This document shows positions 1 to 43,401 of a DNA stretch of 64,000 bases, one piece after another. The stretch is from Thermodesulfobacteriota bacterium (GTDB taxonomy: Bacteria > Desulfobacterota_D > UBA1144 > Nemesobacterales > Nemesobacteraceae). The stretch is from positions 359,525 through 423,524 of the forward strand of contig OZ219814.1 of the NCBI GenBank assembly GCA_964291665.2, given 5' to 3'. Within the stretch, counting starts at the first letter, position 1. The number at the start of each line of letters is the position of its first letter. The notes below the pieces were generated by a model. It had not been told where the DNA came from, did not search any database, and was given only the letters and a program-made list of their open reading frames with translations. The translations under genes and the position numbers were made by a program.

Positions 1-514
1 CTTTCGCCATAACCATAGCCCCTTTAAACTGAGAAATCAGGAATTCGGGAATCAGGTTCGTATCAATTCCGTCTTGAAGCATTCCCGCTTCCTTGCAATC
101 TTCTACGCTTGCATCCATACCTTTTTTGGTTATCTGGAAAAACGTATCGATAACAGAACGGAATTTCTGGTTTATGGAACCCTGTTCCAAGTCCATCCTC
201 GCAATAAAGCTGCCTGTCTGTAAAAAAAGGTCACGCTTGGCGTAAACTCCTTCTATATAGAACTTGACACAGCGCTCAAGGGGATTTGTATAGCGGGCAA
301 GGAGAATTTCCGATACGATTTTTTCCTGATAATCGACGTGCAGTTTGAGTATCTTAAGCCCCAACTCCTCCTTGTTTTCGAAATGGTAGTAGAAATTACT
401 CTTGGAAATCCCCGCCGCCTTTATGAGCATGTCAATAGAAGTTCCACTGTACCCATAAAAACGAAAATGCTCGTAGGCGGTCTCAATAATTTTACCTTTG
501 TTAGTACTTTTCAT
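1..514 (-). CDS. TetR/AcrR-family transcriptional regulator (C-terminal end runs off the window)
   Basis: Absent from the ORF track because there is no stop in the window. Reverse-strand translation from ATG (514..512) reads MKSTNKGKIIETAYEHFRFYGYSGTSIDMLIKAAGISKSNFYYHFENKEELG, the TetR N-terminal helix-turn-helix signature. Confidence 0.8.
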   Translation of the reverse strand, partial: MKSTNKGKIIETAYEHFRFYGYSGTSIDMLIKAAGISKSNFYYHFENKEELGLKILKLHVDYQEKIVSEILLARYTNPLERCVKFYIEGVYAKRDLFLQTGSFIARMDLEQGSINQKFRSVIDTFFQITKKGMDASVEDCKEAGMLQDGIDTNLIPEFLISQFKGAMVMAK

Positions 515-560
515 TCCCAATACCTATTAGCTAGTACTTTTCATTCCTAATACCTACTTA
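501..560. repeat. Imperfect 30-bp tandem duplication covering the TetR start-codon region
   Basis: 501-530 ttagtacttttcattcccaatacctattag vs 531-560 ctagtacttttcattcctaatacctactta (25/30 identical). The upstream copy gives the mini-ORF ATG AAA AGT ACT AGC TAA on the minus strand. Confidence 0.85.
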
Positions 561-937
561 TTAAACTCCCTAGAAGAATTTTGTCAATCGGTTTTAGAAG
601 TGATTACAAAATAATACGGGACCGTTAAACCTCATGAGACACTGAAAACCAACACCGACGGTCATATCCCGCCCTCGACTCTCAGGTAAAGACGGAACCC
701 GGTTCGCGGCCATAAAAAACTCAGACACCCTTTCGTCTCCGGGCGAGAAAAGCATTAAAAAACAAGGGAACCGAGGCACGGTTCAGAACAGATCTTTTTT
801 GAGCCGCACTCTCAGACCCAGCAAGTCATTTCCCCGTAACCAGGCGGGATTGAGTCTCGCCGCCCTGCTTCTGCTAGGCGGGGCGGCGTCTTGAGAACTC
901 TTAAGCCAGATGCCGTTTTTTCGCTCTCCTGCTCGGT

Positions 938-2044
938 TCATCGATGATCGGAACCGGTAATCTCGCTTATGTCGCTGATTCCGTTTTTATCCATGAACCG
1001 GATAAGCCCCCTGTTTATCGAGTTCGCGACCGAAAGACCCTCTCCGCGAAGTCCCGTGACCACCTGGAGGGCCTTGGCTCCCGCGCGAAGCTTCTCAAGC
1101 GCAGAAGCGGTGTCGGAGACGCCCCCCACCCCGATTATCTCAAGCTCCCCGCCCGCAGTACTGTAAACGTGGGAAATAATCGACGTTGAAAGCTCCCTGT
1201 ACTCAAGATCGTTTCCGCTTATTCCCCCGGGAAGACCCTCCCACTTCGCGCCGTACTTCGCCTTGAGGGACCGGTTGTCGCTCGTGTTGGTGGCTATTAC
1301 GCCCGAGATCCCGGAATCGACCACGACCCCAAGGAGATCGTCTATCGCCCCCAGGGAAAGATCGGGAGAGATCTTAACGAACAGGGGCCGCTCGACACCC
1401 GAAGGGTCCCCGAGGGACTCCCTCACGGCCCGTATTATTTCCCCAAGGCGTCCCCCGTCCTGAAGCTTCCTCAGCCCCGGGGTGTTGGGGGAGCTCACGT
1501 TTATAGCGAAGTAGGCGGCGTCCGAGCGGAATTTCCGGGCGACTGCGGCATAGGCCCGCGGGGCGTCATCGTGGCTTACGTCAGAGTTTATGCCAAGGTT
1601 CACTCCGACGGGCATATCGAGGCGGCCGTAGCGCCTGAGGTTCTCGAGGACCGCGTCCATCCCCGGGCTGTTTAACCCAAGGGAATTAAGGCACACCTCG
1701 GGGGTCACCATAAACTGCCGGGGCCTGGGATTTCCCCTCTGGGGCCTCTCTACGACAGAACCCACTTCGACCCCCGCAAACCCAAGGGAGTAAAGCGCCC
1801 GAAGCGCCCTTCCGGTCTTGTCCCATCCCGCCCCCACGATAAGGGGATTCTCAAAAGGCACGCCGGCCACCGCGGTGGCGAGTCTTTTGTCCCTGACCCT
1901 GGCCCCGCCGCTTGCGGAAAGCTCAAGCAGTCTCAGGGTAAGACCCGAGAACTCGCAGAGATGCATGAGCTCCTTTACGTTATGGTGCCACGTTTCTGAA
2001 TCAAGACGGTCAAGAACCGGCCTTAGGAAAGTTTTATAGATCAT
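938..2044 (-). CDS. pyrD: Dihydroorotate dehydrogenase (quinone-type, class 2)
   Basis: 368-aa ORF with motifs GVPFENPLIVGAGWDKTG, INVSSPNTPGLR and GVIATNTS, plus the N-terminal extension typical of class 2 DHODH. Confidence 0.9.
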   Translation of the reverse strand: MIYKTFLRPVLDRLDSETWHHNVKELMHLCEFSGLTLRLLELSASGGARVRDKRLATAVAGVPFENPLIVGAGWDKTGRALRALYSLGFAGVEVGSVVERPQRGNPRPRQFMVTPEVCLNSLGLNSPGMDAVLENLRRYGRLDMPVGVNLGINSDVSHDDAPRAYAAVARKFRSDAAYFAINVSSPNTPGLRKLQDGGRLGEIIRAVRESLGDPSGVERPLFVKISPDLSLGAIDDLLGVVVDSGISGVIATNTSDNRSLKAKYGAKWEGLPGGISGNDLEYRELSTSIISHVYSTAGGELEIIGVGGVSDTASALEKLRAGAKALQVVTGLRGEGLSVANSINRGLIRFMDKNGISDISEITGSDHR

Positions 2045-2115
2045 GCCCTTTTGAGAATTCTATCCGAACAAGGCCTCGGCAGGCAAAACCGGACCCGGAA
2101 CCAGGCGCGGGCGGA

Positions 2116-3216
2116 TCAGACGTTGAACCTGAAAAACATGACGTCCCCGTCGCAGACCTCGTAGTCCTTTCCCTCAAGCCTCATCTTCCCGGCCTCCCTG
2201 ACCATCTGCTCGGAACCCTCCCTCACGTAATCCTCGTACGATATGGTCTCGGCCCTTATGAAGCCCCTCTCAAAATCGGTGTGGATGATCCCGGCCGCCT
2301 GGGGCGCCCTGGTTCCGCGCCTCACGGTCCAGGCCCTAACCTCCTTGGGGCCCGTGGTGAAATAGGTAAGAAGCCCGAGATTCGAGTACGCGCAGTTAAC
2401 CAGCCTGTCAAGCCCGGAAGCGGAAAGCCCGAGCTCCTCGAGGAAAACAGCCTTCTCCTCTCCCTCAAGCTCGGCTATCTCAGCTTCTATCCTTGCCGAG
2501 ACGGTGATGACGTCGTCTCCCGAGCGCTCGGCGCACTCCCTTACCCTGCTTACCTCCGGGTTTTCCCCGGCCCCCGAGATATCTTCCTCAGAGACGTTGC
2601 AGACGTAGATAACGGGTTTTTCGCTTAGAAGAAAAAGCTTCCGTACCGTGTCCGCGTTTCCTTCCGGGCAGGGAAAATCCCTCGCGCGCCGCCCGGTCTC
2701 TATAAACTCCCGAAGCGCCTTCACCGTTTCAAGCTCCCTCACTACTCCCTTATCTCCGCTTTTTGCCTGGTTTGTGAGTTTTTCCTCCCTTTTCTCCACA
2801 GTCTCGAGATCCTTCAGGATAAGTTCGTCCTCGATAGTGAGGATATCGCGGATGGCGTCGATTCCCTCCTCGACGTGGATCACGTTTTCATCCTCAAAGC
2901 ATCTTACGACATGGAGTATGAGGTCGACTTCCCTTATGTGGGACAAAAAGGCGTTTCCCCTTCCCTTTCCCTCTGAAGCCCCCTTAACGAGCCCCGCTAT
3001 GTCGACTATCTCAAGGCTCGTGGGAACGGTCCTCCGGGGTTTTACGATGTCTGAGATGGCATAAAGCCTCGGGTCCGGGACCCCGACCACTCCCACGTTA
3101 GGATCTATGGTGCAGAAAGGAAAATTGGAGGCCGCGGCGCCCGCGTTTGTAAGCGCGTTAAAGAGAGTCGACTTCCCGACGTTAGGGAGTCCCACTATTC
3201 CGCATCGAATTCCCAT
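2116..3216 (-). CDS. ychF: Ribosome-binding ATPase YchF (Obg-like GTPase family)
   Basis: 366-aa ORF. P-loop GIVGLPNVGKSTLFNALT and C-terminal TGS-like IHTDFERGFIRAE. Confidence 0.95.
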   Translation of the reverse strand: MGIRCGIVGLPNVGKSTLFNALTNAGAAASNFPFCTIDPNVGVVGVPDPRLYAISDIVKPRRTVPTSLEIVDIAGLVKGASEGKGRGNAFLSHIREVDLILHVVRCFEDENVIHVEEGIDAIRDILTIEDELILKDLETVEKREEKLTNQAKSGDKGVVRELETVKALREFIETGRRARDFPCPEGNADTVRKLFLLSEKPVIYVCNVSEEDISGAGENPEVSRVRECAERSGDDVITVSARIEAEIAELEGEEKAVFLEELGLSASGLDRLVNCAYSNLGLLTYFTTGPKEVRAWTVRRGTRAPQAAGIIHTDFERGFIRAETISYEDYVREGSEQMVREAGKMRLEGKDYEVCDGDVMFFRFNV

Positions 3217-3239
3217 AAGTTTCCGTACCTGTTAGGAAA

Positions 3240-3318
3240 TGGGGTGGATGACCGGATTTGAACCGGCGACCTCTTGGGCCACAACCAAGTGCTCTAACCG
3301 GGCTGAGCTACACCCACC
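3240..3318 (-). tRNA. tRNA-His (anticodon GTG)
   Basis: The reverse complement GGTGGGTGTAGCTCAGCCCGGTTAGAGCACTTGGTTGTGGCCCAAGAGGTCGCCGGTTCAAATCCGGTCATCCACCCCA folds as a cloverleaf. It has the extra 5' G(-1) typical of tRNA-His, anticodon loop TTGTGGC, and an encoded CCA. Confidence 0.9.
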
Positions 3319-3569
3319 GTTGAAACCTTCATTGTCTATGGAGCAAAAACCGAATTTGCTAATATACCGGCAACCCGGTTAACAAACAAATCACCCAGGA
3401 AAAGGCCCGCGGATAAACCCGGACCGCGAAGGGAAAGAGGAGCATCCGCGCTGGCTCACCGCGTGGTTTCCCTTCGGGTTGCGGTTTCCCCGCAGATGAT
3501 TTCACCCGACCCGCAAACACGCCGTTTGGTCTCTCCGTCCCGCCGAATAACGCGGGGATGGGCAACGAT

Positions 3570-3598
3570 TTGACAGGTCCGGTTCTGTCTGTTATTTA
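3570..3598 (+). promoter_or_regulatory. Possible sigma70-like promoter upstream of the LRR locus
   Basis: TTGACA (3570-3575), 17-nt spacer, TATTTA (3593-3598). The -10 element is weak. Confidence 0.25.
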
Positions 3599-3755
3599 TA
3601 CTTACCGTACAGTAGCTACCAACCGGTTAGTTTTTATGGTATAGTGTGCTAGCTAAAAAGTAAATTCACCCCAGGAAAATGCTGAAATGCCGCTTGCCAG
3701 CCCGAATGAAATAAAACCTCTTTCCATGAAAAATCGTAAAAACCTGATCGCTCCA

Positions 3756-3766
3756 CCCCCCCCCCC
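3756..3766 (+). repeat. Homopolymeric C11 tract
   Basis: Eleven consecutive C residues 24 nt upstream of the first candidate start (TTG 3790) of the signal-peptide frame, and inside the ATG-3687 ORF. Confidence 0.95.
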
Positions 3767-3789
3767 GTTTTTCTTCGGAGCGAAGGATC

Positions 3790-4155
3790 TTGCGGCAGGT
3801 GGAAGCAGTGAGGCGTTTGTCCGCGTTCTCCGTAAAGTGCTTCCTTGTGTGCCTGGCCGCGGCGTTTTTCGTTATTGCGGGAGACGCGCACGGGCAAACG
3901 ACCTGCAGCAATCATTGCCATCCACACCGCTGACTGACAAGGACGTTCTTATAATTCTTTACTGCGCTACTGACGGCGCTAACTGGAGAAACAAGACAAC
4001 TGGCTTAGCGCCATGGCGCTTGACAGTTGGAATGGCGTGACGGCTACGGACAACGGTACGACAGCTAATAACGATGATATGGTAACAAGATTAGGCCTCA
4101 ACTTTAATCAGTTAAGCGGGACAATACCCGCCGAGCTTAAGCGGTACTGACCAGC
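3790..4155 (+). pseudogene. 5' part of the LRR surface-protein gene: signal peptide plus LRRNT-like cap, split over three frames
   Basis: Frame 1 (3790-3933) reads LRQVEAVRRLSAFSVKCFLVCLAAAFFVIAGDAHGQ then a stop. Frame 0 reads LTDKDVLIILYCATDGANWRNK. Frame 2 reads NWLSAMALDSWNGVTATDNG...LNFNQLSGTIPAEL then a stop at about 4147. Confidence 0.6.
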
Positions 4156-4810
4156 TTGCTGCAACTGGGTTTCTTTATCAATCAGTTAAGCGGGACAATA
4201 CCCGCCGAGCTTGGAGGTCTGACCAGCCTGAAGACACTGGTTCTCTATGGCAATCAGTTAACCGGTACAATACCCACCGAGCTTGGAGGTCTGACCAGCC
4301 TGACCTGGCTGTATCTCCATGACAATCAGTTAAGCGGAACAATACCCACCGAGCTTGGAAGTCTGACCAGCCTGACGCATCTGTGGTTCAGTAACAATCA
4401 GTTAAGCGGAACAATACCCACCGAGCTTGGGGGTCTGACCAGCCTGGAGGAACTGAGGCTCGAAGAAAATCAGTTAAGCGGAACAATACCCACCGAACTT
4501 GGAGCTCTGACCAGCCTGAAGGCACTGCTTCTCGATAACAATCAGTTAAGCGGAACAATCCCCACAGAACTTGGAGCTCTGACCAGCCTGGAGGCACTGT
4601 ATCTCAACGATAACGAACTGAGCGGAGATATCCCTTCCGAGCTTGGAAGCCTGACCAGCCTGACGCAACTGTATCTCAATGACAACGAACTGAGCGGCAA
4701 CATCCCTCCTGAACTTGGAAGCCTCTCAACCCTTAAGTTTCTCTGGCTTGACGACAACGACCTGGTCACGGTTCCGACAGAACTTGAAACCCTGACCGAG
4801 GGCGCCTTGT
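4090..4810 (+). repeat. Tandem array of about ten 72-bp units (24-residue LRRs)
   Basis: aatcagttaagcgg[ga]acaataccc.ccgagcttgg recurs with an exact 72-nt period at about 4108, 4180, 4252, 4324, 4396, 4468 and 4540. Diverged units occur at 4612, 4684 and 4756. Confidence 0.9.
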
Positions 4811-4905
4811 TGGAATTATCCCTCTGGGGCAATGAACGATCTCGTATGGGAGATGCCAATGTCAAACGAGCTTGGCAGGAGAGCGGACAGGGCGGCTTTA
4901 CGTGA
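4156..4905 (+). CDS. Leucine-rich repeat protein fragment (plant-type 24-residue LRRs); probably part of a frameshifted larger gene
   Basis: 249-aa ORF made of NQLSGTIPTELGGLTSLxxLxLxx repeats. It has no signal peptide of its own, a TTG start inside a repeat, and overlaps the next fragment. Confidence 0.7.
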   Translation: MLQLGFFINQLSGTIPAELGGLTSLKTLVLYGNQLTGTIPTELGGLTSLTWLYLHDNQLSGTIPTELGSLTSLTHLWFSNNQLSGTIPTELGGLTSLEELRLEENQLSGTIPTELGALTSLKALLLDNNQLSGTIPTELGALTSLEALYLNDNELSGDIPSELGSLTSLTQLYLNDNELSGNIPPELGSLSTLKFLWLDDNDLVTVPTELETLTEGALLELSLWGNERSRMGDANVKRAWQESGQGGFT

Positions 4906-6199
4906 ACTTTACGACAATACCAAAGGTCTTACCTGGAAAAACTCCGGCAATTGGTTTTTCCATCAACTCCCCTCCTCCGATTGGTACGGGGTCACAACAA
5001 ATGACGACAATCGGGTAAGCGAACTCGATCTCTCCGATAACAACCTTAATGGAGAGCTTACAAACGCGTTTGAGGCGCTTGACAACCTTGAATCGCTCAA
5101 TCTCTCCGCAAACCCGCTAAGGGGAGAGATTCCCCCGGAACTCGGAAAGCTCACCAACCTGCAGGGGCTGTACCTAAGAGAAGACTCACTGAGCGGAGAA
5201 ATTCCCCCGGAACTTGGAGGCCTCACCAGACTGGCTCTACTGTTTCTTGACGGTAACTCACTAAGAGGAGAAATTCCCCCGGAACTTGGAGATCTGAGTG
5301 AACTGAGAGAACTGCATCTTGAGGAGAACTCATTAACAGAAATTCCCCCGGAACTCGGAAACTTGAGCAACCTGCGACAACTGGTGCTTGAAGAGAACCA
5401 ATTAAGCAGAATTCCCCCGGAACTCGGAAACCTGAGCAACCTGCGACAGCTGGCGCTTGCCTTTAACTCGTTAAGCGGGACAATCCCCACCGAACTTGGA
5501 GGTCTCTCCAACCTGCAATACCTGCTTCTTAACGACAATCCCATGCTGGGCGGAACGCTTCCGCTTGAACCGGCGGTTCATACCTCTTTTGATACTCTGG
5601 ACATAAGCAATACGGGTATCTGCGTGCCTGACACAGCGGAGTTTCGGGAATGGCTGGGAAGCGGAAGGTTCTTATTCTATGAAAGCGGTATTACCTGCGA
5701 ACAGAGCCCGGGAAAGGTAACGGGGGTGACGGTGGAGCCGGGAGAGTCGAGTCTCTCGGTATCGTGGGACCAGGTAACGGATGCAGACGGCTACAAGGTG
5801 CAGTGGAAGTCGGGTTCGGAGGAGTACGGGGCGATGGACCGTGAAGAGGAGGTCATGGGCGGGGACACGACCAGCTACACGATTACCGAACTTGTCCCGG
5901 GCACCACTTACACAGTAAGGGTGATAGCAACCAAGGGCGCTGAAGACTATGAGCCGTCAGACGACGTAACAGGTACGCCGATAGGACCAGAGCCTCCACC
6001 GCCACCGCCACCACCACCGCCACCTCCTCCACCTCCACCACCTCCACCGCCACTAGTGACTCTGGTACAGGTAACGGGGGTAACGGTGACTCCAGAGGTT
6101 TTGAGTCTCTCGGTATCTTGGGACCCAGGTAACGGATGCAGACGGCTACAAAGTGCAGTGGAAGTCGGGTTCGGAGGAATACGGAGCAATGGACCGTGA
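4832..6199 (+). CDS. LRR + fibronectin type III + polyproline protein fragment
   Basis: 455-aa ORF. Cap RAALRELYDNTKGLTWKNSGNW..SDWYGVTT, about 7 LRRs (NSLSGEIPPELGxLxxL), an FN3-like module (LSVSWDQVTDADGYKVQWKSG...YTVRVIA), and a run of about 20 Pro. Confidence 0.7.
   Translation: MNDLVWEMPMSNELGRRADRAALRELYDNTKGLTWKNSGNWFFHQLPSSDWYGVTTNDDNRVSELDLSDNNLNGELTNAFEALDNLESLNLSANPLRGEIPPELGKLTNLQGLYLREDSLSGEIPPELGGLTRLALLFLDGNSLRGEIPPELGDLSELRELHLEENSLTEIPPELGNLSNLRQLVLEENQLSRIPPELGNLSNLRQLALAFNSLSGTIPTELGGLSNLQYLLLNDNPMLGGTLPLEPAVHTSFDTLDISNTGICVPDTAEFREWLGSGRFLFYESGITCEQSPGKVTGVTVEPGESSLSVSWDQVTDADGYKVQWKSGSEEYGAMDREEEVMGGDTTSYTITELVPGTTYTVRVIATKGAEDYEPSDDVTGTPIGPEPPPPPPPPPPPPPPPPPPPPLVTLVQVTGVTVTPEVLSLSVSWDPGNGCRRLQSAVEVGFGGIRSNGP
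5020..5570 (+). repeat. Second LRR repeat block (69-72-bp units, about 7-8 copies)
   Basis: Recurring ...ggagaaattcccccggaacttgga... units encoding GEIPPELG. Confidence 0.8.
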
Positions 6200-6620
6200 A
6201 GAGGAGGTCATGGGCGGGGACACGACCAGCTACACGATTCCTGACCTCACAGCCGGCACTGAGTACACAGTGAGGGTGATAGCGACAAGGTCAGGCGCCG
6301 ATGACGGGCAGCCGTCAGATGAGAAAACAGGCACGCCGAAGTTTCCGGCTCCCGCACAGGTAACGGGGGTAACGGTGACTCCAGGGGTTTTGAGTCTCTC
6401 GGTATCTTGGACCCAGGTAGCGGATGCAGACGGTTACAAGGTGCAGTGGAAATCGGGCACGGAGAGCTTTGGCACCCACCAGCATGTGATCACTGAAGGC
6501 GGCACGACCACCTACACCATTCCTGACCTCGCAGCCGGCACTGAGTACACAGTGAGGGTGATAGCGACAAGGTCAGGCGCCGATGACGGGCAGCCGTCAG
6601 ACGAGGCAACAGGTACGCCG
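5704..6620 (+). repeat. Three near-identical FN3-encoding cassettes (about 290 bp each)
   Basis: Long identical nucleotide stretches are shared pairwise. One example, gcagacggctacaa.gtgcagtggaagtcgggttcggagga, is in cassettes 1 and 2. Another, gccggcactgagtacacagtgagggtgatagcgacaaggtcaggcgccgatgacgggcagccgtcaga, is in cassettes 2 and 3. Confidence 0.85.
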
Positions 6621-6692
6621 ATGGGATTAACACCACCTGCTCCAGAACCTCCTCCACCTCCAGACCTCCGCCGGTGGAGCCGGGGCCGATAA
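6153..6692 (+). CDS. FN3-repeat protein fragment (continuation of the LRR/FN3 gene in another frame)
   Basis: 179-aa ORF. It starts inside an FN3 module (QWKSGSEEYGAMDREEEV) and contains a second complete FN3 plus a Pro-rich linker. Confidence 0.6.
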   Translation: MQWKSGSEEYGAMDREEEVMGGDTTSYTIPDLTAGTEYTVRVIATRSGADDGQPSDEKTGTPKFPAPAQVTGVTVTPGVLSLSVSWTQVADADGYKVQWKSGTESFGTHQHVITEGGTTTYTIPDLAAGTEYTVRVIATRSGADDGQPSDEATGTPMGLTPPAPEPPPPPDLRRWSRGR

Positions 6693-7195
6693 TCCCCACT
6701 GAACCAGAACCTACAACACCCACCGAACCGGAGCAGCCGGAAAAGCCGGGGCCCGGCCAGATAACCGGATTAGAGGTAACAGAAGGGGTGGAGGAACTTT
6801 CGGTGTCATGGGATGAGTTTCCGGGGGCGAGCGGATACATAATCCGGTGGAAGTCCGAGGATTCGCAGGAGTTCGATCATGAGATGACCGTTACGGGAGA
6901 GAGTACGACAAGCTACACCATTACGGGTCTCGACCCGGAAATTAAGTACGTGGTGAGAGTGATGGCAACCGGCACCGAAAACCTGCCGTCGGAAGCTACG
7001 GGTGCTCCGAGAGCGAAGGATATTTCTGGTCCGCCACTAACCCAAGAGGCGGGACAGCAGGGTTGCGGAGCGTGCGCCATCGGTTCCGATGTTCCGGGAG
7101 AAGTCTCTCAAAGCGCCTTGCTTAATTTGCTTCTCGTCATGTCAGTGCTGCTTTTCGCTTCAAAAAGGGGAAGAACAAGGCCAGGGTCGGCGTAA
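6674..7195 (+). CDS. Pro/Glu/Thr-rich linker + FN3 + C-terminal Gly-Cys/hydrophobic/basic tail fragment
   Basis: 173-aa ORF. PTEPEPTTPTEPEQPEKPGPG linker, FN3 (LSVSWDEFPGASGYIIRWKS...YVVRVMA), and tail GCGACAIGSDVPGEVSQSALLNLLLVMSVLLFASKRGRTR. Confidence 0.6.
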   Translation: MEPGPIIPTEPEPTTPTEPEQPEKPGPGQITGLEVTEGVEELSVSWDEFPGASGYIIRWKSEDSQEFDHEMTVTGESTTSYTITGLDPEIKYVVRVMATGTENLPSEATGAPRAKDISGPPLTQEAGQQGCGACAIGSDVPGEVSQSALLNLLLVMSVLLFASKRGRTRPGSA

Positions 7196-7526
7196 GTTTC
7201 CAGGCAAGAGCCGCTGGCAAAAGCCGGCAGTCTGCAAGACTCCGGAGGATCTTCTTCTCTGCGGTTGCGGGAGACAGGCGCCGTCAACGGGTGAGTTTCG
7301 CTAAAACACGCGGAGGGTTGCCCGACGGAATGAACCGGTGGATTCGGGCATGGAAGGTTTTAGCCGAGTTAATCAGAAAGGACAGTTTCCCACCCACTCG
7401 TCCTTTACTTGAGAGTCCCAGCGTATCGGCAGCTTAAAAACCCCGTATTTATTCGCCCGGCTGACTCCCCGCAAAGGTGAAAAACCGCCGTTTTCCCCGC
7501 CGCCCGAGAGGTCTCGGCGGGGATAT

Positions 7527-7554
7527 TTGATTTAATCGAGAACTTGTTTATACT
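7527..7554 (+). promoter_or_regulatory. Candidate sigma70-type promoter of aceB-aceA
   Basis: TTGATT (7527-7532), 16-nt spacer, TATACT (7549-7554), about 50 nt upstream of the aceB start. Confidence 0.4.
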
Positions 7555-7602
7555 AGGCAGTTTTTATTCAATAATAACAGGCATCCGAGGAGCGAAGAAC
7601 AG

Positions 7603-9486
7603 ATGGGCACCACACTGCACATAAGAGACAACATAGAGCAATCCTACGGGGACGTGTACACGCCGGAGGCGCTTGAGGCCCTTGAATTCATGGCCCGCTA
7701 TAACGGCGAGCAGAAGGCCATCATGGAAAAAAGGACCCAGAGAAGAAAAAGGCGCTACGAATCCAAGGAAAGAATAACCTTTCTCGATCCAGATTCCCTC
7801 ATTCCGCGCACCAGTATCAAGGTCCGAGACGCAAGGGACGGAAAATTCGAGGGACCGGAGATTCCCCATGACCTGAAAAGACAGTGGATACAGGGAACCG
7901 GACCCGCGGCAAAACCGAACTCCCCTGTTGAAAAAAGCATAAGAAACGTCGCCTACGCACTTCTCTCGGGCGCGGACGGGTGGATGTTCGACGGAGAGGA
8001 CGCCCTGGGGCAGATCTCAACCATGTCCCTAGATAACCAGCGCAATCTAAAGCTCGCGATCGCGAGGGACGAGGTGTTCATGAGGACCGCGGAAGGCGTG
8101 GCCGGGGAGATGAACAGGTGGGGACAGAGCTTCTTCGGACACGACATAATAGAGGACTGGGAAAAGCAGCTTGACTTCACCACGGTCATTTTCAGGGCGA
8201 GGGGACTTCACCTCGATGACCGCCACATACGCGACGCAGACGGCGTAGCGCTTTCTGCTTCCGTGGTCGACATTACTCTCTTTGTCGTTAACAACTACAG
8301 GGAGCTCGCCAGGAGAAACTCATCCATAGTCCTTTACCTCCCGAAGATCCAGACCGCCGAGGAAGCGGCGCTCTGGAACGAGATGCTCTCGGCCCTTGAG
8401 GGCCACGTCGGGCTTCCCGAAGGCACGATAAAGGTGTACGTGCTTATAGAGCAGCTTGAGGAGACGTTCCAGCTAATGGAGATAAGGGCAGCCCTCGGGA
8501 AACACTTCGTCGGATTTAACACCGGCAGATGGGATTACATAAACAGCGTCTCTGACGCCATGGCGTGGGATGAGGATTTCATTAACCCTAACATAGAGTC
8601 TATCACCATGACCTACGGATACATGAGAAACTACGAGGACCGCGTGAGAAGAGCCGTTAACACCCCGGACGTAAACGGGAACTTCGCGCTCTGGCAGGGA
8701 GGAATGGAGCCTAACATTCCCGTCGGGTCAAAGGAAGGGGTAGAGAGCAGCATGGAGAAGGCCTACGCCGGGGCCGTTAGGGAGCAGCAGGAAGGGGCAA
8801 GCGGCAAATGGGTCGCCCACTGGAAGATGGTTCACATAATAAGACCCGTGTGGGAGAAGGAGGGCGAGGAGAACCAGCTCGGAAGGGAGTTTCCCCCGCT
8901 TACCTACACCCAGGAGGACTCAGACGGCCTCATACTCCTTGAGCCCGCCCCGAGAACCATAAGGGGAGCCCGCAACCTGCTTAGCGTGGGACTTCAGTAC
9001 GGAAACGCGTTCGGCCAAGGATTCCAGGCCGCGGCGCTTAAGCCCGCCGATTTCTTCGGAAACGACGACATCCTCTACCTGATGGAGGACGCCGCCACCG
9101 GGGAGATAAGGCTGAGCATTCTCTGGGAGTGGGTACACAAGGGAGCAAAGCTCACCGAGGACGACCCCGAGACCGGGCTTAATGCCGGGGACACTTTCAC
9201 CGCGGAGGTTTTCGAGAGGCTGCTCGAGGAAGAGTACGCAAAGCTCCAGGCGGCAAGCGACAGGGACGTGCACGACATCTCAAAGCCCACCACCCTTCCC
9301 ATAGCCAGGCAGATAGTGAGGGCCTACGTGCTTGACGACGTGAAGGTGCCGTGGTACATAGACCTGCTCAACATAAACCTAAACAACCACGACCATGACG
9401 TGGCCTCGCAGAGAATCGAACTCTACATGACGGAGTTTGCGGGCAATGACAGGAGAATCACCGAGAACCTCGATTTCGTAATCTAG
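7603..9486 (+). CDS. aceB: Malate synthase (A-type, with insertions)
   Basis: 627-aa ORF. Blocks match E. coli AceB by eye: [69 protein letters not shown] and [19 protein letters not shown]. Confidence 0.93.
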
Positions 9487-9530
9487 GTTCCCGAAGAAAC
9501 AACCATCTTTATTTTCAGGAGAACATATCC

Positions 9531-11801
9531 ATGAGCCAGTTAGAAGCTGAGATACGGAAGACGAAGAGGTATTTCTCAAGCAGGCGCTTTAGGGGAATAA
9601 CCCGTCTTTACTCGCCCCGCCAGGTGGTGGAGCAGAGAGGAACCATAAGAAGGGACTACTCTATCGCGAAAAACGCCGCGGAGGCATTCTACAAGAGACT
9701 CCGCGAGCTTTTCGCGGAGAAAAAGCAGATAACGTCCTTCGGTCCCTATTCGCCCGGACAGGCGGTCATGATGAAAAGAAAGGGAATAGAGGGCATATAT
9801 CTCGGCGGATGGGCCACGTCGGCCAAGGGATCGATCGGCGAGGACCAGGGAGCGGATCTCGCAAGCTATCCGCTGAGCCAGGTGCCGGACGAGGCGGCCC
9901 CCATAGTGAGGGCTCTTCTCGCCGCGGACAAAAACCAGAGATACAACCGCGCGAGGATGACCGAGAAGGAAAGGCAGCAGACGCCCGAGATCGACTACAG
10001 CCCCTTCATAGTCGCCGACGCGGACACGGGACACGGCGGGGACGCCCACGTGAGAAACCTTGTCAGAAGGTTCGTCGAGGCCGGCGTCACGGGCTATCAC
10101 ATAGAAGACCAGAAGCCCGGAACCAAGAAATGCGGTCACCAGGGCGGAAAGGTTCTCGTGCCTTCTGATGAGCAGATAAAAAGACTTAACGCCGCCCGCT
10201 TTCAGCTCGATATAATGGAAGTGCCGGGGATAATAGTTTCAAGGACCGACGCCGAAGCCGCCACCCTTCTTGACGGAAACGGGGACGAGCGCGACCAGCC
10301 GTTTGTCCTGGGAGCGACCAAACTCAATATCCCGAGCTACAAGAACGCCTATCTCACGATCCTTAAAAGGATCCACGAGGGGGGCGTAAAGGAGATAAAC
10401 GGACACAAGCTCTACAAGATAAGCAAGGAGACCTACGCGGAAACGGACAGCTGGCTTGAGGAAACCGGAATAGCGTCGTTTATAGACGAGAACATAGAGG
10501 CGATGAAGGGGGACACCCAGGAGCTTGAGACCGCCTTGGATTCCGTAGTCACCAAGTTCGTCGAGATATGGGAAGAGGAATCCGGCCTCAGCACCTTCGG
10601 CGAAACGATAGAGACGCTCATGGAGTTTAACATGGAGCAGGGCATTGAATTCGACATGACCGTCGAGCAGTGGAGGGAGTTTGCCAGGACCGCTTCCACG
10701 AAAGACGCTATGGAGAAGGCCGATTCCCTGGGAATCGATTACATATGGGATCCCGAGATTTCAAGAACGCCCGAAGGGTACTACCAGGTAAAGGGCGGTA
10801 TAGAATACGCGATCGCCAAATCTCTTGCCGTGGCGCCTTTTGCCGACCTGCTCTGGATGGAGACCAAGACTGCGGACCTTGAGGACGCAAGGCAGTTCGC
10901 AGACGCTATCCACGAGGTTTTTCCGGACAAGATGCTTGCCTACAACCTCTCTCCCTCCTTTAACTGGGACACGACGGGAATGACCGACGAGGAGATGAAG
11001 AAATTCCCCGAGGAGATAGGAAAGCTCGGCTTCGTGTTCGACTTCATAACCTACGGAGGCCACCAGATAGACGGCATGGCCGCAGAAGAGTTCGCGACCG
11101 CGCTCATGGAAGACGGCATGCTCGCCCTGGCGCGCGTGCAGAGAAGACTGAGGCTCATAGATTCGCCTTACAAGACTCCGCAGACCCATGTCGGGGGACC
11201 CCGCATGGACGGAGCGCTCGTGGCAAGTTCCGGAAGAACCGCGACCACGAAGGCAATGGGCAAGGGCTCGACCCAGTTCCAGCACCTGGTTCAGACGGAG
11301 ATTTCCATCAACCTTCTCGAGGAGTGGCTTGAGGCCTGGGCAAGGCACAACAAGCTCAAGGACACCCTCTCCGCCGAACTTAAGCCCCATACCGTGGGAA
11401 CTTTCGTTCTCGAGCTTAACATCCTAAACGGCAAGGGCGAGAAGGTGGCGGACGTCATATTCGAAATACTGCAGGACAGGAAGGGAGAGAAGATACTGAC
11501 TGTGAGGGACGAAAACATTGCTGAGGCCCTTCGCCAGAAACGCCTCGCGACCCTGCTTCACCTGTTCCTGATTCACCGCTACAGAACGGATTTCGTGCAT
11601 TACGTAAGCCCCACGGAAGACAACCTCATGCAGACCAAGGGTATGATGAGGCTCGGGATCTACGAATCGGTCAACACCGAAGTCGGTCACATAATAGTGG
11701 CGAAGACAAACGTCGAATACGTAAAGGAGCTGCTTAGCCCCGATCGCAGGGAACTCAAGAAGCTCATCGCGAAAAAGACCGGCAGACGCAAGAAGAAGTA
11801 A
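9531..11801 (+). CDS. aceA: Isocitrate lyase, long form (about 750 aa, ICL2/eukaryote-like)
   Basis: 756-aa ORF. ICL signature [12 protein letters not shown] and DADTGHGG, with a large internal insertion and a C-terminal extension relative to 430-aa bacterial ICL. Confidence 0.93.
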
Positions 11802-12092
11802 CGGGGCGGCGGACTGAAAAGATTCTGTTTTTGTACGTGCTCAAGGTGAAAAGTGTTGCTTTTCGCCTTGGGCACAGCTTTTTGTCTGCTCCTTCCGCGA
11901 GATATCGCTTACTGATCAAATCTCGCTTCCCGAGTGACTGTCGTATCTTCCCACCACTACAGCTTCAAAGAAAAAAACCGCAGAGTATATTTTTTGTAGT
12001 AATCGATACTGAAAACTGTATTCTAATCTGTTCAGAAAAGGGGCAGTGTTTCTACACGCCTCCTGAAAAAATACGGAATCGAGGGTAATGCG

Positions 12093-13746: not shown

Positions 13747-14640
13747 TCAGGAATCAGAAAGCCTGTGTCTCTTCCAGTACCTTATGAGACCTCCAGCGTT
13801 CATGTGGTAAGGAGTCATGAGATCGTACTTGCGGTAAACATCCTCGCTTGTGCCCTCACGCTCGAATATCTCTTTGAAGAAGACGCCAAACTCCTCTGTT
13901 ATTTCCTCATCGCTCTTTCCGGCTGACAATCTCTCGCCGATCCACTCAGACCACTCTTCAAGTTTTTCGGCGGCTGTGTCAAGCATGGGGCCCACATCCG
14001 TGTATCCACCGAAATGGGTAAGATAAATAATGTCGGGGGATATCTCCCTCATCTTCTCAATAGAAGCGTTCCACTTCTCAAGGTGTATCTCGGGAGGAGG
14101 AGTAGCCGGAATCATGGGACCGCCCGCCATCAGGCACCCCGCAGTATCCCCGGTAAAAAGGGCGTTCTCGATCAGGTAGCAGTGATGATGCCCGGCATGT
14201 CCGGCTGTCTCAACAACTTTTATTTCAACGCCTCCTATGTTGATGACCTGGCCATCCTCGATTGCAACCACGCTGTTTTGATCCATTCCCCTTACCTCGC
14301 CCCAGAGCTCATCCATTTTATCCCCGTATATCCTTGCGGCGGACCTCATGAGCTTCTCCGGGTCAATAAGGTGTGGAGCTCCCACCGGGTGAACGTATAT
14401 GGTGGATCCCGCTTCGGCGAAATGCCAAGCGGCACCCGAGTGGTCAAGATGAATGTGGGTTACGAACACGTGTTTTACGTCAGAGGGCGCGTAGCCGAGG
14501 TCCGAAAGACCGCTTTTAAGATTCTCAAACGACGTGTCGGGACCGGTTTCTATCAGCATCGGCCCCTCTCCGGTCTCTATGAGGTAAGACGCTACCGCCT
14601 CCGTTGTAAAGAAATTAACGTCAATTATCTTCAGGTCCAT
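13747..14640 (-). CDS. MBL-fold metallo-hydrolase
   Basis: 297-aa ORF with the metallo-beta-lactamase motif THIHLDHSGA and a downstream TAGHAGHH. Confidence 0.85.
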   Translation of the reverse strand: MDLKIIDVNFFTTEAVASYLIETGEGPMLIETGPDTSFENLKSGLSDLGYAPSDVKHVFVTHIHLDHSGAAWHFAEAGSTIYVHPVGAPHLIDPEKLMRSAARIYGDKMDELWGEVRGMDQNSVVAIEDGQVINIGGVEIKVVETAGHAGHHHCYLIENALFTGDTAGCLMAGGPMIPATPPPEIHLEKWNASIEKMREISPDIIYLTHFGGYTDVGPMLDTAAEKLEEWSEWIGERLSAGKSDEEITEEFGVFFKEIFEREGTSEDVYRKYDLMTPYHMNAGGLIRYWKRHRLSDS

Positions 14641-14671
14641 TTAGTTATGTCCTCCTGCGTTTGTTTCATTC

Positions 14672-15133
14672 TTAGAATCCAAAACGTAAACCCGCGTGAA
14701 AAGTAGTGTTGTTGATTGATGGTGAGTCTATTAGGTCGCTGCTTCTGGCAATCCCCAGTTTCAGCCTTGCGCTCTCGCCCAAGTTAACAAAACCCGCCAC
14801 GGCCAACGCGGTGTTTCCTACGCAAGGATCTCCGTCCTTTACCGGGTAAGACGTCCCGTTTGTATAGTGGCTGATGCCCATACCTAGTTTCACTCCCGCT
14901 ACCTTGAAGCCCGCTCCCCCCGTAAACACGCTGATATTATCAATCTCAGAGTACTTTTCATCAAACGGGGTATGCGACGCCGTTGCGTCAAACGTAACCT
15001 TCTGGTGAACGAGTTCCGGCACCGCGTGAATCGCAAGATTGTTGTTTTCAACCGTGCTGCAATCGTCCGCGGCCGCCAGCGTCGGCATAATAGCTACTAA
15101 GCCCGCTATCAAAATCAGATTGATTTTATACAT
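14672..15133 (-). CDS. Small outer-membrane beta-barrel-like protein (hypothetical)
   Basis: Signal peptide MYKINLILIAGLVAIMPTLAAA, alternating beta-strand pattern, and C-terminal ...AGLRFGF ending in an aromatic residue. AAGGAGG lies 7 nt upstream of ATG 15133, whereas the track starts at an upstream TTG (15151). Confidence 0.6.
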   Translation of the reverse strand: MYKINLILIAGLVAIMPTLAAADDCSTVENNNLAIHAVPELVHQKVTFDATASHTPFDEKYSEIDNISVFTGGAGFKVAGVKLGMGISHYTNGTSYPVKDGDPCVGNTALAVAGFVNLGESARLKLGIARSSDLIDSPSINNTTFHAGLRFGF

Positions 15134-15242
15134 TTCACTGCCTCCTTTCAAGAAACTTACATTTTCCCCTGATGATTAATCAATTACGACAAAATTTTTC
15201 TTCTTTTTGGCAATTCCGTAAAAATAATTTGTACGCTACTTC

Positions 15243-16403
15243 TCACGCACCGGCTTTCACCCGGCCTGAGTCAACGAGAAACGAGTGAAATTCCCCCCGA
15301 CGGGGTATCTCGTTCTTATCGGTCGAGGTGACGAATACCTGCCCGGTGAATTCCGAGAGAGTTCTGAAAAGAAAACTTCTGCGCTTTATGTCAAGCTCGC
15401 TCGTTATGTCGTCGAGAAGAAGTATTGGGTTAGTCCCCGTGTGTTCCTTAAAAAGCCTTATCTCTGAGGCCTTAAGCGCCAGAACCAGATTTTTCGACTG
15501 TCCCTGCGAGGCAAAGCGCGAAGCGTCCTGTCCGTTAAGCAGAAAACCGACCCGGTCCCTGTGGGGACCCACTGTCGTGTGCCCCCTTTTCCTGTCAGAA
15601 GGGAATTTTTTAGAAAGCTCTTCCCTTATCGCCTCTGCGATATCCGCCCCGCGTTCATACGAAAACCCGTAGCTAACACGCGCCGACATGTCTGATTCCC
15701 CGTGCTCCCCGTAAACCTCGGCGAGCTTGCGGTTAAAGCTTTTTATCATCTCGATGCGCCTGTCCACGATTTCGGCTCCGATTCTGGCTATCTGTTCGTC
15801 CCAGAGTTCCACGGAAAGCGGGGACACTTTCTCCTTTGATCCGAGCATGTGGTTTCTCTGGCTTACTGCCCTCTGGTAATCGCGAAGCTGCTTTATGTGG
15901 GCCGGGTGCACGGCGCTTACCACCGAATCGAGGTAATTCCTCCTCGCCTGAAGCCCGCCCTTCACTATTTCTATGTCCGAGGGAAGGAACAAAACGACCT
16001 TGAACCGGCCGAAATGCTGGCTTATGCTCCGCACGGTCTTTGAGTTAAGTCGGGTGTGGCGGCCCTCTTTCTTTATGGTTATGTGGACCTCATTGAGACC
16101 GTTTGCGGAAAGAATCTCCCCTTTAACGAGCGACGCCTCGCAGCCGAAGCGAACGAGCTCGGAGTTTTTCGCGCCCGAAAAAGGCCGCATCCCGCAGACA
16201 AGATAGATGGCCTCGAGAAGGTTGGTTTTCCCTTGGGCATTTCGTCCGTGAATGACGTTCAGTCCCGTATGGAACGGAAGGGAGAGGCTCTCGTAATTTC
16301 TGTAGTTCCTGAGGCTCAGATGTTTTAGCTGCACTTGACTCGCCGAGTGGTTTTCTCTGGAAAAAACCGCTTTCGCCCTTCCCTCGGGCGCTTTCTTGAC
16401 CAT
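15243..16403 (-). CDS. recF: DNA replication and repair protein RecF
   Basis: LKHLSLRNYRNYESL...VIHGRNAQGKTNLLEAIYL Walker A and C-terminal LLLDDITSELD. The true start may be GTG at 16334 (VQLKHLSL...), which would also widen the divergent intergenic region. Confidence 0.9.
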   Translation of the reverse strand: MVKKAPEGRAKAVFSRENHSASQVQLKHLSLRNYRNYESLSLPFHTGLNVIHGRNAQGKTNLLEAIYLVCGMRPFSGAKNSELVRFGCEASLVKGEILSANGLNEVHITIKKEGRHTRLNSKTVRSISQHFGRFKVVLFLPSDIEIVKGGLQARRNYLDSVVSAVHPAHIKQLRDYQRAVSQRNHMLGSKEKVSPLSVELWDEQIARIGAEIVDRRIEMIKSFNRKLAEVYGEHGESDMSARVSYGFSYERGADIAEAIREELSKKFPSDRKRGHTTVGPHRDRVGFLLNGQDASRFASQGQSKNLVLALKASEIRLFKEHTGTNPILLLDDITSELDIKRRSFLFRTLSEFTGQVFVTSTDKNEIPRRGEFHSFLVDSGRVKAGA

Positions 16404-16445
16404 AAAATTTTAAGCGTTAATATCTTTTTTGAAAGGTACTGACTT

Positions 16446-18545
16446 ATGATATCTCTTAAAATATCGGAAATCCACTCGAGGGACTCGGGCAAGGGTTACG
16501 CAAGGATAAGCCCCATGGACATGCGGGAACTGGGCCTTACGTCCTGGGACCTGGTACAGATAGACGGAAGGAGAAAAACCGTCGTGAGAGCCCTGCCGCT
16601 TGACGCCGAAGAACAAGAAATGGATTCCGTAATAGAAATAGACACTGTAACCAGAGAGAACGCAGGGGTTGAGCTTGACGACATAGTAATAGTGACGAAA
16701 GCCGACCTTGAGAAGGCAAGCAGGATAACCCTGTGTCCCAGAAACAAGGCATTTCTCTACGACCCGTCCAAAAGCAAGCACCTCTGCAACAGGCTCGAAG
16801 GGCTCGCCGTAACAGTCGGAGACAGGGTATCTGTGAGAGTGTCCGCCGCCAAGACCGAAGATTTCGACGTGCTTACCACGATGCCTGAGCACTCGGTTGT
16901 CATAAGCCAGAAAACCCGCATGGACGTGATACAGAGGCCAAAAACCAAGGTGGACGCTGAAAAGGTCTCGTATACGGACATAGGCGGGCTTTCAAGCCAG
17001 ATAAAAAGAATAAAAGAGATTCTCGAACTTCCGATACGCTTCCCCTCGCTTTTTGAAAAGCTCGGGGTCCAGCCGCCCAGGGGAATCCTTCTCACGGGAC
17101 CCCCGGGAAGCGGAAAAACCCTGCTCGCAAAAGCCATAGCGTTTGAGACGGATTCAAATTTCCAGGTAATAAACGGCCCCGAGGTAATTCACAGGTTCTA
17201 CGGAGAGAGCGAAGCCAATCTGCGCCAGATATTCGAGAACGCTACCAAGAACCAGCCGTCAATAATATTCCTGGATGAACTGGACGCGATAGCTCCCCGC
17301 CGAGACAAGGTTACGGGAGACGTTGAAAAAAGGGTGGTGGCCCAGCTTCTATCCCTCATGGACGGTCTCACGCACAGAGGAAACGTTACGGTTATCGGAG
17401 CGACCAATCTTCCGGACATGATCGACCCCGCGCTTCGCCGCCCGGGCAGGTTTGACAGGGAAATTCACCTTCCGGTTCCCGATACCGAGGCCCGTCTGGA
17501 GATATTCCAGGTTCATTCAAGAAGCATGCCGCTTTCAAACGACGTGGATCTTCAGAGGCTCTCCGAGCTCTCAAGCGGCTACGTGGGAGCCGATATAGAA
17601 AATCTCTGCAGGGAAGCTGCCATAAACTCTCTTACCAACATTCTGCCGGACATGGAACCGAATTTCGTCTCCAACGTCGCACACAGCTTTCTCGTGGAAG
17701 TAAGCATGGAAGACTTCCTTGAGGCACTTCGAAATATCCATCCCTCCGCGATAAGGGAGATAGTGGCTGAGATACCGAAAACCTCCTGGGATGACGTCGG
17801 AGGTCTTGAGAGCGTAAAAGACGACCTGATTGAATCCGTCATATGGCCCATGAAGCACAGAAATTTCTACGAGGCCCTGGACGTAGAGTCACCCAAGGGA
17901 ATACTTCTTCACGGCCCTCCGGGAACGGGTAAGACCCTTCTCGCAAAAGCTCTTGCCAACAGAACGGAAGTCAACTTCATTTCCATAAAGGGAGCGGAGC
18001 TTCTCTCCAAGTATGTAGGAGAATCGGAGCGCGCCGTAAGGGAAGTCTTCAAAAAGGCAAAGCAGGTTTCTCCCTGCATAGTGTTCTTCGACGAGCTTGA
18101 CGCCCTTTGCCCGAGACGCTCAGAATCCAACTCGACCCGCGTGAGCGAAAGAGTGGTAAGCCAGCTGCTCGCCGAGATTGACGGGGTCGAAGAACTCCCG
18201 GATGTTCTGGTGCTTGCCGCGACAAACAGGATCGACATGGTAGAACCGGCGCTTCTTAGACCGGGAAGATTCGATCTGGTGGTTGAGATTCCAACTCCGT
18301 CAAAACAGGAAATTCTCGAGATCCTGAAAATCCACACCCGGAAAAAGCCTCTCGGAACGGACGTGAAACTCACCGCGCTCGCAGAACAGCTCGAGGGCAG
18401 AACCGGAGCTGACGTAAAGCTCGTATGCAACAGGGCTTCCCTTCACGCGATAAAAGAACATCTGGGGAAAAACAGAAAAATCATCAAACTCTGCAGAAGA
18501 CATTTTGACCTGGCGCTTTCGGAACTGCAGAAAAGAAACGCTTAA
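16446..18545 (+). CDS. Cdc48/p97/VAT-like AAA+ ATPase (N domain + two AAA modules)
   Basis: 699-aa ORF. Cdc48-N-like start ([37 protein letters not shown]), two Walker A motifs ([16 protein letters not shown]), two DELD Walker B motifs, and RPGRFD sensor motifs in both modules. Confidence 0.9.
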
Positions 18546-43376: not shown

Positions 43377-43401
43377 CGCCTCGGGAAAAAGGATCCCTCG
43401 G

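Follow-up and report, generated by a model that had tools for sequence, protein, structure and literature searches.

Genes with leucine-rich repeats (LRRs) and fibronectin type III (FN3) modules are enriched in sponge-associated bacterial genomes, and Dadabacteria are among the lineages recovered from sponges as metagenome-assembled genomes (MAGs) (PMC8163846). One class of LRR, the plant-specific one, has units of 23–25 residues with the consensus LxxLxLxxNxL(t/s)GxIPxxLGxLxx (PMC2946307). An LRR head for protein binding is also found in the Listeria internalins, the Leptospira LIC proteins and the Xanthomonas proteins XopAC, XopAE and XopL, accompanied in the surface proteins by a spacer and an anchor. 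Bacterial genes may be switched by slippage in homopolymers, as in Neisseria pilC, with a poly-G tract in the signal-peptide region, and Bordetella fim, with a poly-C tract in the promoter. Here we describe a gene that shares traits with all of these, located in a 64,000-nt stretch of contig OZ219814.1 (the window) of a Thermodesulfobacteriota bacterium. The gene encodes a secreted LRR–FN3 protein and is broken by six frameshifts. We read it, with a confidence that is about even, as a pseudogene: an allele, inactivated recently, of a eukaryotic-like surface-protein gene that is lineage-specific, changes fast and belongs to a sponge-associated, Dadabacteria-like bacterium.

One LRR–FN3 gene in seven frame segments

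Between tRNA-His and a malate-synthase-like gene, the + strand contains no long single open reading frame (ORF) and carries a chain of overlapping ones. These ORFs (3790-3933, 3687-4040, 4013-4150, 4156-4905, 4832-6199, 6153-6692 and 6674-7195) join into one protein, the frame (start mod 3) running 1, 0, 2, 1, 2, 0, 2 along the gene. An earlier note, made from the letters of this DNA, had described one secreted LRR/FN3/polyproline gene split into seven frame segments, and the three-frame translation and the ORF list agree with that description. The region 3808-7195 is a single gene with end-to-end homology to intact proteins of 984–1274 aa. Homology over the whole length was found to intact P0001 (1274 aa, 94% coverage), P0007 (91%), P0006, P0010, P0018 and P0093, with which the window gene has in common the signal peptide, both caps, the FN3 modules and an unusual tail.

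Once the frame is repaired, the protein begins with a signal peptide (MRRLSAFSVKCFLVCLAAAFFVIAGDAHG) and a cap (LTDKDVLIILYCATDGANWRNK / NWLSAMALDSWNGVTAT), followed by about 11 LRRs of 24 residues, a second cap (RAALRELYDNTKGLTWKNSGNW...SDWYGVTT), about 8 further LRRs, a Cys-containing C-cap, four FN3 modules with Pro-rich linkers and the tail GQQGCGACAIGSDVPGEVSQS-ALLNLLLVMSVLLFA-SKRGRTRPGSA, a domain order that matches the one first proposed. In a Pfam search, the repaired 1131-aa translation matched LRR_1 (4.7e-45), LRR_8 (1.4e-35), LRR_14 (1.3e-33) and fn3 (3e-44), the last (PF00041) in four stretches with 149.6 bits against a gathering cut-off of 25. Translation likely starts at GTG 3808 (MRRLSAFSVKCFL...), judging from relatives P0127 and P0130, which have an equivalent start codon. 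From there, it ends at the stop codon at 3931-3933, after 41 codons, and a functional protein is therefore impossible from the sequence as assembled. The gene combines full-length homology to intact proteins with a frame disrupted by six frameshifts, as is expected of a pseudogene. Its segments, lesions and surroundings are listed in Table 1.

Table 1. Features of the broken LRR–FN3 gene and of the slot in which it lies (window positions)
Feature	Position	Strand	Remarks
YchF	2116-3216		
tRNA-His (GTG)	3240..3317	-	ARAGORN; Rfam tRNA 65 bits; left landmark of the slot, outside the gene
Strain-variable islet	3405..7426		between tRNA-His and malate-synthase-like gene; from comparison with L085 and L170
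Candidate -10 box TATAGT	3640..3645	+	putative only
Upstream ORF (MPLASPNEIKPLSMKNRKNLIAPPPP)	3687..3766	+	homologous to N-terminal extension of intact P0001 and P0007; ends in poly-C tract
C11 homopolymer	3756..3766	+	longest run in window (next 8 nt); candidate slippage tract
Segment A, frame 1	3808..3912	+	probable GTG start; Shine–Dalgarno-like AGGTGGAAG upstream
Signal peptide MRRLSAFSVKCFLVCLAAAFFVIAGDAHG	3808-3894	+	judged by eye; followed by QTTCSN
Frameshift 1, -1 nt	3913..3915	+	window 'CAT TG CCA', L170 'CAC ACG CCA'
Segment B, frame 0	3915..3995	+	N-terminal cap, first half (LPSTPLTDKDVLIILYCATDGANWRNK)
Frameshift 2, -1 nt	3995..3997	+	window 'CAAGACAAC', L169 'CAAGGGCAAC'; L170 and L169 in frame
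Segment C, frame 2	3998..4138	+	cap, second half (NWLSAMALDSWNGVTAT...), and LRR 1
Frameshift 3, net +2 nt	4139..4146	+	8 nt 'AAGCGGTA', 6 nt (GGAGCT or GGAGAA) in relatives; no homopolymer
Segment D, frame 1	4147..4836	+	LRRs 2-11, 24-residue units of plant-specific type; Pfam on ORF 4156-4902, TRF, PDB matches
Frameshift 4, +1 nt	4837	+	'GAACGATCTCGT', L083/L084 'GAGCG-CCTTGT'
Segment E, frame 2	4838..6120	+	second cap, about 8 LRRs, Cys-containing C-cap, FN3-1, start of FN3-2
Poly-Pro linker in segment E	5992-6053	+	between FN3-1 and FN3-2
Frameshift 5, +1 nt	6119..6124	+	'TGGGACCCAGG'; module 1 'TGGGACCAGG', module 3 and L170 'TGGACCCAGG'
Segment F, frame 0	6123..6656	+	remainder of FN3-2, then FN3-3
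Frameshift 6, net -1 nt	~6657..6661	+	in Pro-rich linker; exact base cannot be fixed, within 6640-6690
Segment G, frame 2	6659..7195	+	Pro-rich linker, FN3-4, tail; stop 7193-7195
Malate-synthase-like gene	7603-9486		right-hand neighbour of the slot

The repeats belong to the plant-specific class, as the earlier note had recognized. The class consensus matches 10 times in the repaired protein as a regular expression, and the DNA has a tandem period of 72 nt (24 aa) in 8 copies (TRF). Among PDB sequences, the protein matches the ectodomains of plant LRR receptor kinases best (At4g26540/RGFR with 508 bits, then GSO1, FLS2, PEPR1 and BRI1), compared with 194 bits for the best solved bacterial LRR protein, Leptospira LIC11098. 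The same note had called this subtype unusual in bacteria, and this part did not stand: 7994 database proteins match at E≤1e-10 and, among the best 120 of these, all 120 have at least 8 repeats of the plant-specific type, 110 have the same W..W..WxGV cap, and many are encoded on contigs of 3–6 Mb with bacterial domains. LRRs of this type with this cap are widespread in bacterial data. Both caps had also been thought LRRNT-like, but neither of them matches Pfam LRRNT_2 (PF08263) at E≤10, nor does the whole protein at E≤0.01. A literature search on plant-specific LRRs in bacteria found the definition of the class and no accessible survey. Miyashita et al. reportedly described, in Natural Science in 2013, a transfer of plant-specific LRRs between plants and bacteria.

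The likeness to plant receptor-kinase ectodomains and PGIP lies in the 24-residue units of plant-specific consensus and the PDB matches. Unlike these plant proteins, the window gene encodes no kinase, lacks an LRRNT_2 match, has a cap variant common in bacteria and combines its repeats with FN3 modules and a bacterial signal peptide and tail. Against NCBIfam, the intact homologues gave sub-threshold, LRR-level matches to XopAE, XopAC, XopL and LIC_11051, with scores far below the family cut-offs (e.g. 155 vs 1000 bits). The family differs from these bacterial surface proteins and effectors in having no LPXTG or NEAT module and no type III signal, and its architecture of two capped LRR blocks and four FN3 modules is unlike theirs. 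With the eukaryotic-like proteins of sponge symbionts, it shares the eukaryotic-type repeat domains, and the nearest relatives come from an Aplysina aerophoba metagenome and a Dadabacteria MAG; it differs from them in being untranslatable as assembled and in having its own poly-C leader and its own tail, and its role in host interaction is putative.

The domain architecture suggests how an intact form might work. A Sec signal peptide would export the protein, and two capped LRR solenoids of plant-specific type would form a ligand-binding head, with host or other cell-surface proteins as the likely ligands. The four FN3 modules and their Pro-rich linkers would serve as a stalk, while the conserved Cys motif, a hydrophobic helix and the basic tail would hold the protein at the membrane.

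Recent inactivation or assembly error

Lesion sites were placed by a frameshift-aware dynamic-programming alignment to intact homologues and by DNA alignment to the orthologue and paralogues, which together put the six frame changes where they had first been noticed. Programmed frameshifting was rejected: the six shifts are of mixed sign, share no common motif and have stop codons between them. The orthologue is on L170 (ENA contig ERZ24894577), where DHO dehydrogenase, YchF, the tRNA and the LRR gene follow in the same order as in the window, and its flanks match window 1-3500 with 98–100% identity and 7065-7432 with 96%. It stays in one frame at the equivalents of five of the six lesions, including the linker of frameshift 6, which is read through; site 4 can be compared only with the paralogues on L083 and L084. 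The lesions are thus specific to the window sequence and, given the nearly identical flanks, derived and recent. At frameshift 1, the linker that is in frame in L170 is differently frameshifted in L169 and L171. This linker, just past the cleavage site, is rich in indels in every copy (-1 in the window, +1 in L169, +1 in L171), and the ORF of P0136 stops there.

The earlier note had envisaged a search for intact orthologues. Intact homologues exist and L170 is in frame at five sites; the L170 gene has a stop codon and a frameshift in a G run of its own. It has also lost, in frame and between two GCGGA pentamers at ~9800-9830, the greater part of the final FN3 module and its linker (window 6825-7065), a deletion by microhomology that a read error is unlikely to explain. 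On the same contig, ArgJ (1135-2316) is split into three ORFs, either by contig noise or as a second pseudogene; the L170 contig may thus simply be noisy.

All six events fall in 3.4 of 57 kb, for which our own arithmetic gives P ~ (0.06)^6 = 4e-8 under uniformity. The 44 long ORFs elsewhere in the window (53.7 kb) are all unbroken despite 83 homopolymer runs of at least 6 nt; where two adjacent ORFs lie on the same strand, each matches complete, distinct Pfam domains, and when the neighbouring 4.5 kb is aligned to a relative, its two genes are both full length. A uniform sequencing error was therefore rejected, which bears out the view already taken in the earlier note. The reading as a pseudogene rests on the derived state of the lesions, on a locus that relatives do without and on the real decay of the family elsewhere.

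Several observations weigh against this reading. All six lesions are of 1–2 nt, the ~1120 repaired codons contain no stop codon and no larger deletion, and every repeat fits the consensus at its conserved positions. A gene in decay for long would normally acquire stop codons and larger deletions as well; the inactivation must therefore be very recent, if it is real at all. At four sites out of six, the change fits a gain or loss of one base (±1) in a run of 2–3 nt. Site 5 is an exact hybrid of two in-frame variants, TGGGACCAGG and TGGACCCAGG, as a consensus of mixed strains would produce. A search for a near-identical allele with the 455-aa ORF gave a best match of 58% identity, and exact look-ups of the YchF and malate-synthase-like proteins encoded in the window matched nothing; with no independent assembly of the window allele, the lesions are unreplicated. 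Since the strains differ strongly only here in the window, local coverage of this allele may be low. Frameshift errors do occur in low-coverage contigs of related data: on L081, covered 3x, UvrD is split into three ORFs and DnaE (DNA polymerase III alpha) into two (5534-7617 and 14095-17269), and UvrD is intact on orthologous contigs at 35–97x (L165-L168, 1-1117).

These points suggest a different explanation, in which the gene is intact and the six frameshifts, perhaps together with the length of the C11 tract, are consensus or polishing errors in a repetitive, strain-variable region with low or mixed reads. We regard this as a real possibility and the main rival, although not the reading we expect. 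The earlier note had left open a pseudogene, a contingency locus and an assembly collapse; the data narrow these mainly to a real pseudogene or a local consensus artefact. Small indels only, a repaired frame without stops and the preservation of all motifs are what it would leave, and the merge at site 5 suits it. The islet differs between strains that are 99–100% identical, so that several alleles probably coexist in one sample, and the split housekeeping genes of L081 show the same kind of damage. In L170, the lesions of the gene are no denser than those of its ArgJ, which fits contig noise over an intact gene, and many family fragments come from the same kind of ENA long-read assemblies. 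On the other side stand the rest of the window, where 53.7 kb with its 83 runs has no broken ORF, and two lesions of another kind than homopolymer changes, one with 8 nt in place of 6 at 4139-4146, the other an additional base at 4837. If an assembler switched paths between 72-nt repeats that are in register, this should not by itself create frameshifts. LRR genes of the family are also found assembled without breaks: P0054 is encoded intact and identically on six contigs from at least 3 samples, at up to 97x. Moreover, a circular 2.0-Mb contig at 63x (L171) carries, among intact neighbours, a family copy with an IS110-family insertion and two frameshifts; broken copies thus occur in a high-coverage closed genome as well.

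A mosaic allele in a variable slot

The divergence of the gene from its orthologue differs sharply from that of its surroundings. Synonymous divergence (dS) between the window and L170 is 0.034 for YchF and 0.007 for DHO dehydrogenase, and over the first 286 codons of the gene dS is 0.28 and nonsynonymous divergence (dN) 0.20 (omega 0.71), so that the gene stands at 10–40 times the value of its flanks. Inside it, identity varies from 68 to 96% per 100–150 nt, with no close match across ~4800-5700. The 5' part is nearest to L169 and L170; the middle to L083/L084, the middle of segment E being of P0006/P0018 type (72–84% nucleotide identity) and unlike L170; and the FN3 modules and tail are nearest to L170, with segment F 92–96% identical per 150 nt and the tail 100% identical. 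From this pattern, we infer recombination with paralogues. The leader and signal-peptide DNA is 95–100% identical in the window (3767-3895), L170 (6474-6605) and the paralogue on L169 (8617-8745), which occupies another locus, with divergence on both sides, and segment A has the same identity to L170 and L169.

Such a mosaic could also arise if the gene were a silent, non-expressed donor cassette, one of a set of broken members that supply segments for gene conversion, like the pseudogene archives of antigenic variation. This would account for the mixture of L169/L170, L083/L084 and L170 parts, for the excess synonymous divergence and for the many truncated or frameshifted members, and the DNA conserved at 95–100% among copies, in the leader and signal peptide and in the tail, could serve as recombination anchors. 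We nevertheless think it decidedly unlikely. Neither an expression site nor a recombination signal was identified, nor a dedicated recombinase, and no second copy of the gene lies within the 64-kb window. The gene also differs from typical silent cassettes in that its leader is complete and its start codon and signal peptide are retained. Ordinary recombination between strains explains the mosaic equally.

The family is small and lineage-specific, with many fragmented copies, some of which adjoin IS110 elements. Full-length intact members are P0001, P0006, P0007, P0010, P0012, P0054 and P0093, and the copy on L169 has at least 4 frameshifts. The tail was found in only 7 clusters among 1.84 billion representatives, all of this family and five of them C-terminal fragments; a widely used sorting signal was rejected on this ground. 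Its layout (motif, helix, basic residues) resembles that of C-terminal sorting domains, a resemblance only. Against the NCBIfam models of such domains (PEP-CTERM, MYXO-CTERM, GlyGly-CTERM, LPXTG etc.), the window tail had no match, and the tails of relatives gave noise at E 0.2–0.8. A search with the N-terminal profile returned 17 clusters, all short fragments, of which several end in out-of-frame LRR read-through or start in the +1 frame of the signal peptide; this search seems biased to short proteins, since the intact query members were not returned. A look-up of P0127, the fragment closest to the N-terminus of the window gene, gave no match. At the locus between UvrD and SelO, the orthologues have 1274 aa and a C10 tract (L081 8001-11825) and 1003 aa and C3TC6 (L165 1501-4512), which indicates that repeat number varies even at a stable locus.

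An IS110 element (DEDD_Tnp_IS110 and Transposase_20) ends with '...TTGATAAAGGGTAGGAAGTCC' flush against the 3' edge of the poly-C tract. The junction was located at L084 ~9900-9950 and L171 ~9860-9905, with L083 10060-10085 and L082 8070-8095 as comparators. Its recurrence in two different gene copies from two samples suggests that insertion into the leader may be target-specific. In L171 (8290-8470), three tandem copies of a unit of ~58 nt carry a near-consensus promoter-like TTGACA-N17-TATATA on one strand, and the unit is also present upstream of intact P0006 (L083 9895-9955).

The position of the gene is itself variable. tRNA-His has the same position relative to YchF in L002, L085 and L170, and what lies between it and the malate-synthase-like gene changes. 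L085 matches window 3306-3404 (87%) and 7427-11940 (90%) and has a 582-aa permease ORF between these blocks (218-1966); the more distant L002 has in the same slot an unrelated repeat-rich surface protein of 2220 aa (3052-9714). The locus is dispensable, because these relatives have other genes in its place, and by appearance the slot looks like a gene-replacement hotspot. In a GTDB Dadabacteria representative, the contig ends exactly at the slot. The islet does not have the marks of a tRNA-linked integrative island: it lies on the 5' side of tRNA-His, no integrase was found, and the flanking direct repeats are of only 8–9 nt, a chance level. An Rfam scan of 3100-7700 matched tRNA-His alone.

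The neighbouring genes indicate the bearer of the slot. YchF is 87% identical to that of a Ca. Dadabacteria MAG and 76% identical to that of a Thermodesulfobacteriota chromosome, and the malate-synthase-like protein is 96% identical to the one on L085, which is contig MKWU01011923.1. MKWU00000000 is an Illumina assembly of the microbiome of the sponge A. aerophoba (PMC5649159). With the closest relatives in this sponge metagenome and in ENA long-read assemblies, the organism is, judged by its genes, a Dadabacteria-like and probably sponge-associated symbiont. Farther from the slot, window 1-750 has a G+C of 0.42, against ~0.55 in the remainder of the window, and a tandem pair of full-length 8-oxoguanine DNA glycosylase (Ogg-HhH) genes was observed at 42732-44052.

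The poly-C leader and the variation of the family

The C11 tract is family-conserved in position. At the same place, L169 has C11, and L170, L081 and L082 have C10, so the length comparison covers five sequences only, the window included; in other family copies the tract is interrupted (C4TC6, C3TC7, C3TC6). In P0001 and P0007, it lies inside the sole possible ORF upstream of the signal peptide. In the window, the upstream ORF from ATG 3687 is out of frame across the tract. An in-frame TGA at 3809 arises only in the P0007-like upstream frame and lies outside a gene that starts at GTG 3808, and a nonsense reading of it was therefore rejected. Given that probable start, and a frame relation between upstream ORF and signal peptide that differs among close relatives, the tract in the window lineage is probably leader and non-coding. 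Between the tract and the signal peptide, the DNA motif CTGCGGCA is read as LRH in P0001 and as CG in P0007 (L081 8090-8130, L082 8095-8135); with two frames used in two intact homologues, the amino-acid sequence of the extension is probably not a conserved feature. Farther upstream, at the candidate -10 box, 'TTATGGTATAGTGTG' has a conserved counterpart, 'TTATGGTATAATGTG', ahead of intact P0007 on L082. A sigma-70 consensus scan upstream of the gene called no full or convincing promoter.

The tract resembles those of homopolymer phase-variable genes: 10–11 C residues near the 5' end, a position conserved in the family and a difference of one base between near-identical strains. Contingency loci have simple-sequence tracts of this kind in the coding region or promoter, and the gene might be a working one, with poly-C length switching expression reversibly and the fragments still in use. 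The C10/C11 tract conserved in place in several members, the step from C11 in the window to C10 in the near-identical L170, the location of the tract within the sole upstream ORF of P0001 and P0007, and its rank as the longest homopolymer of the window all favour this. We consider it very unlikely, however, because a change in the tract alone would not turn the gene on or off: correcting it restores nothing past codon 41, and the six frameshifts downstream lie outside repeat tracts and would not be reversed by slippage, which makes the window copy irreversible. In addition, close relatives do not agree in the frame relation between upstream ORF and signal peptide; the tract falls in coding sequence or in the leader depending on the copy and is probably non-coding here. 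Returning to the gene as a recently inactivated allele, the off-length C11 upstream may mark a copy that was first switched off and then decayed.

A broader proposal is that the LRR–FN3 genes of sponge-associated Dadabacteria form a programmed variation system, in which heads would be reshuffled by segmental recombination between conserved leader/signal-peptide and tail anchors, broken copies would act as an archive, and the C10/C11 tract would be both on/off switch and IS110 target. At this point we regard it as speculative and rather unlikely. If true, it would mean that a symbiont of sponges, which are among the earliest-branching animals, has a mechanism akin to antigenic variation.

A single broken gene of this kind matters little: it adds one to the eukaryotic-like LRR/FN3 genes of sponge symbionts and may be no more than an assembly blemish. 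Before repeat genes that vary between strains are called pseudogenes in a metagenome assembly, their lesions need checking against the reads. More is to be learned from the context, in which three features go beyond the earlier note, namely the poly-C tract at the 5' end, the variation of the slot between strains and the hypervariable multigene family. In two strains whose flanks are 98–100% identical, the alleles differ by 5–30% and are mosaics of family members, and in a third relative the slot is occupied by a different gene. Across assemblies, frameshifts, truncations and neighbouring IS110-family elements are frequent among the copies. We treat the hypervariable mosaic locus, the poly-C leader that copies share and the association with IS110 as leads and not as findings. 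Should these patterns prove real, they would point to a rapid, recombination-driven turnover of proteins that are thought to mediate recognition between symbiont and host.

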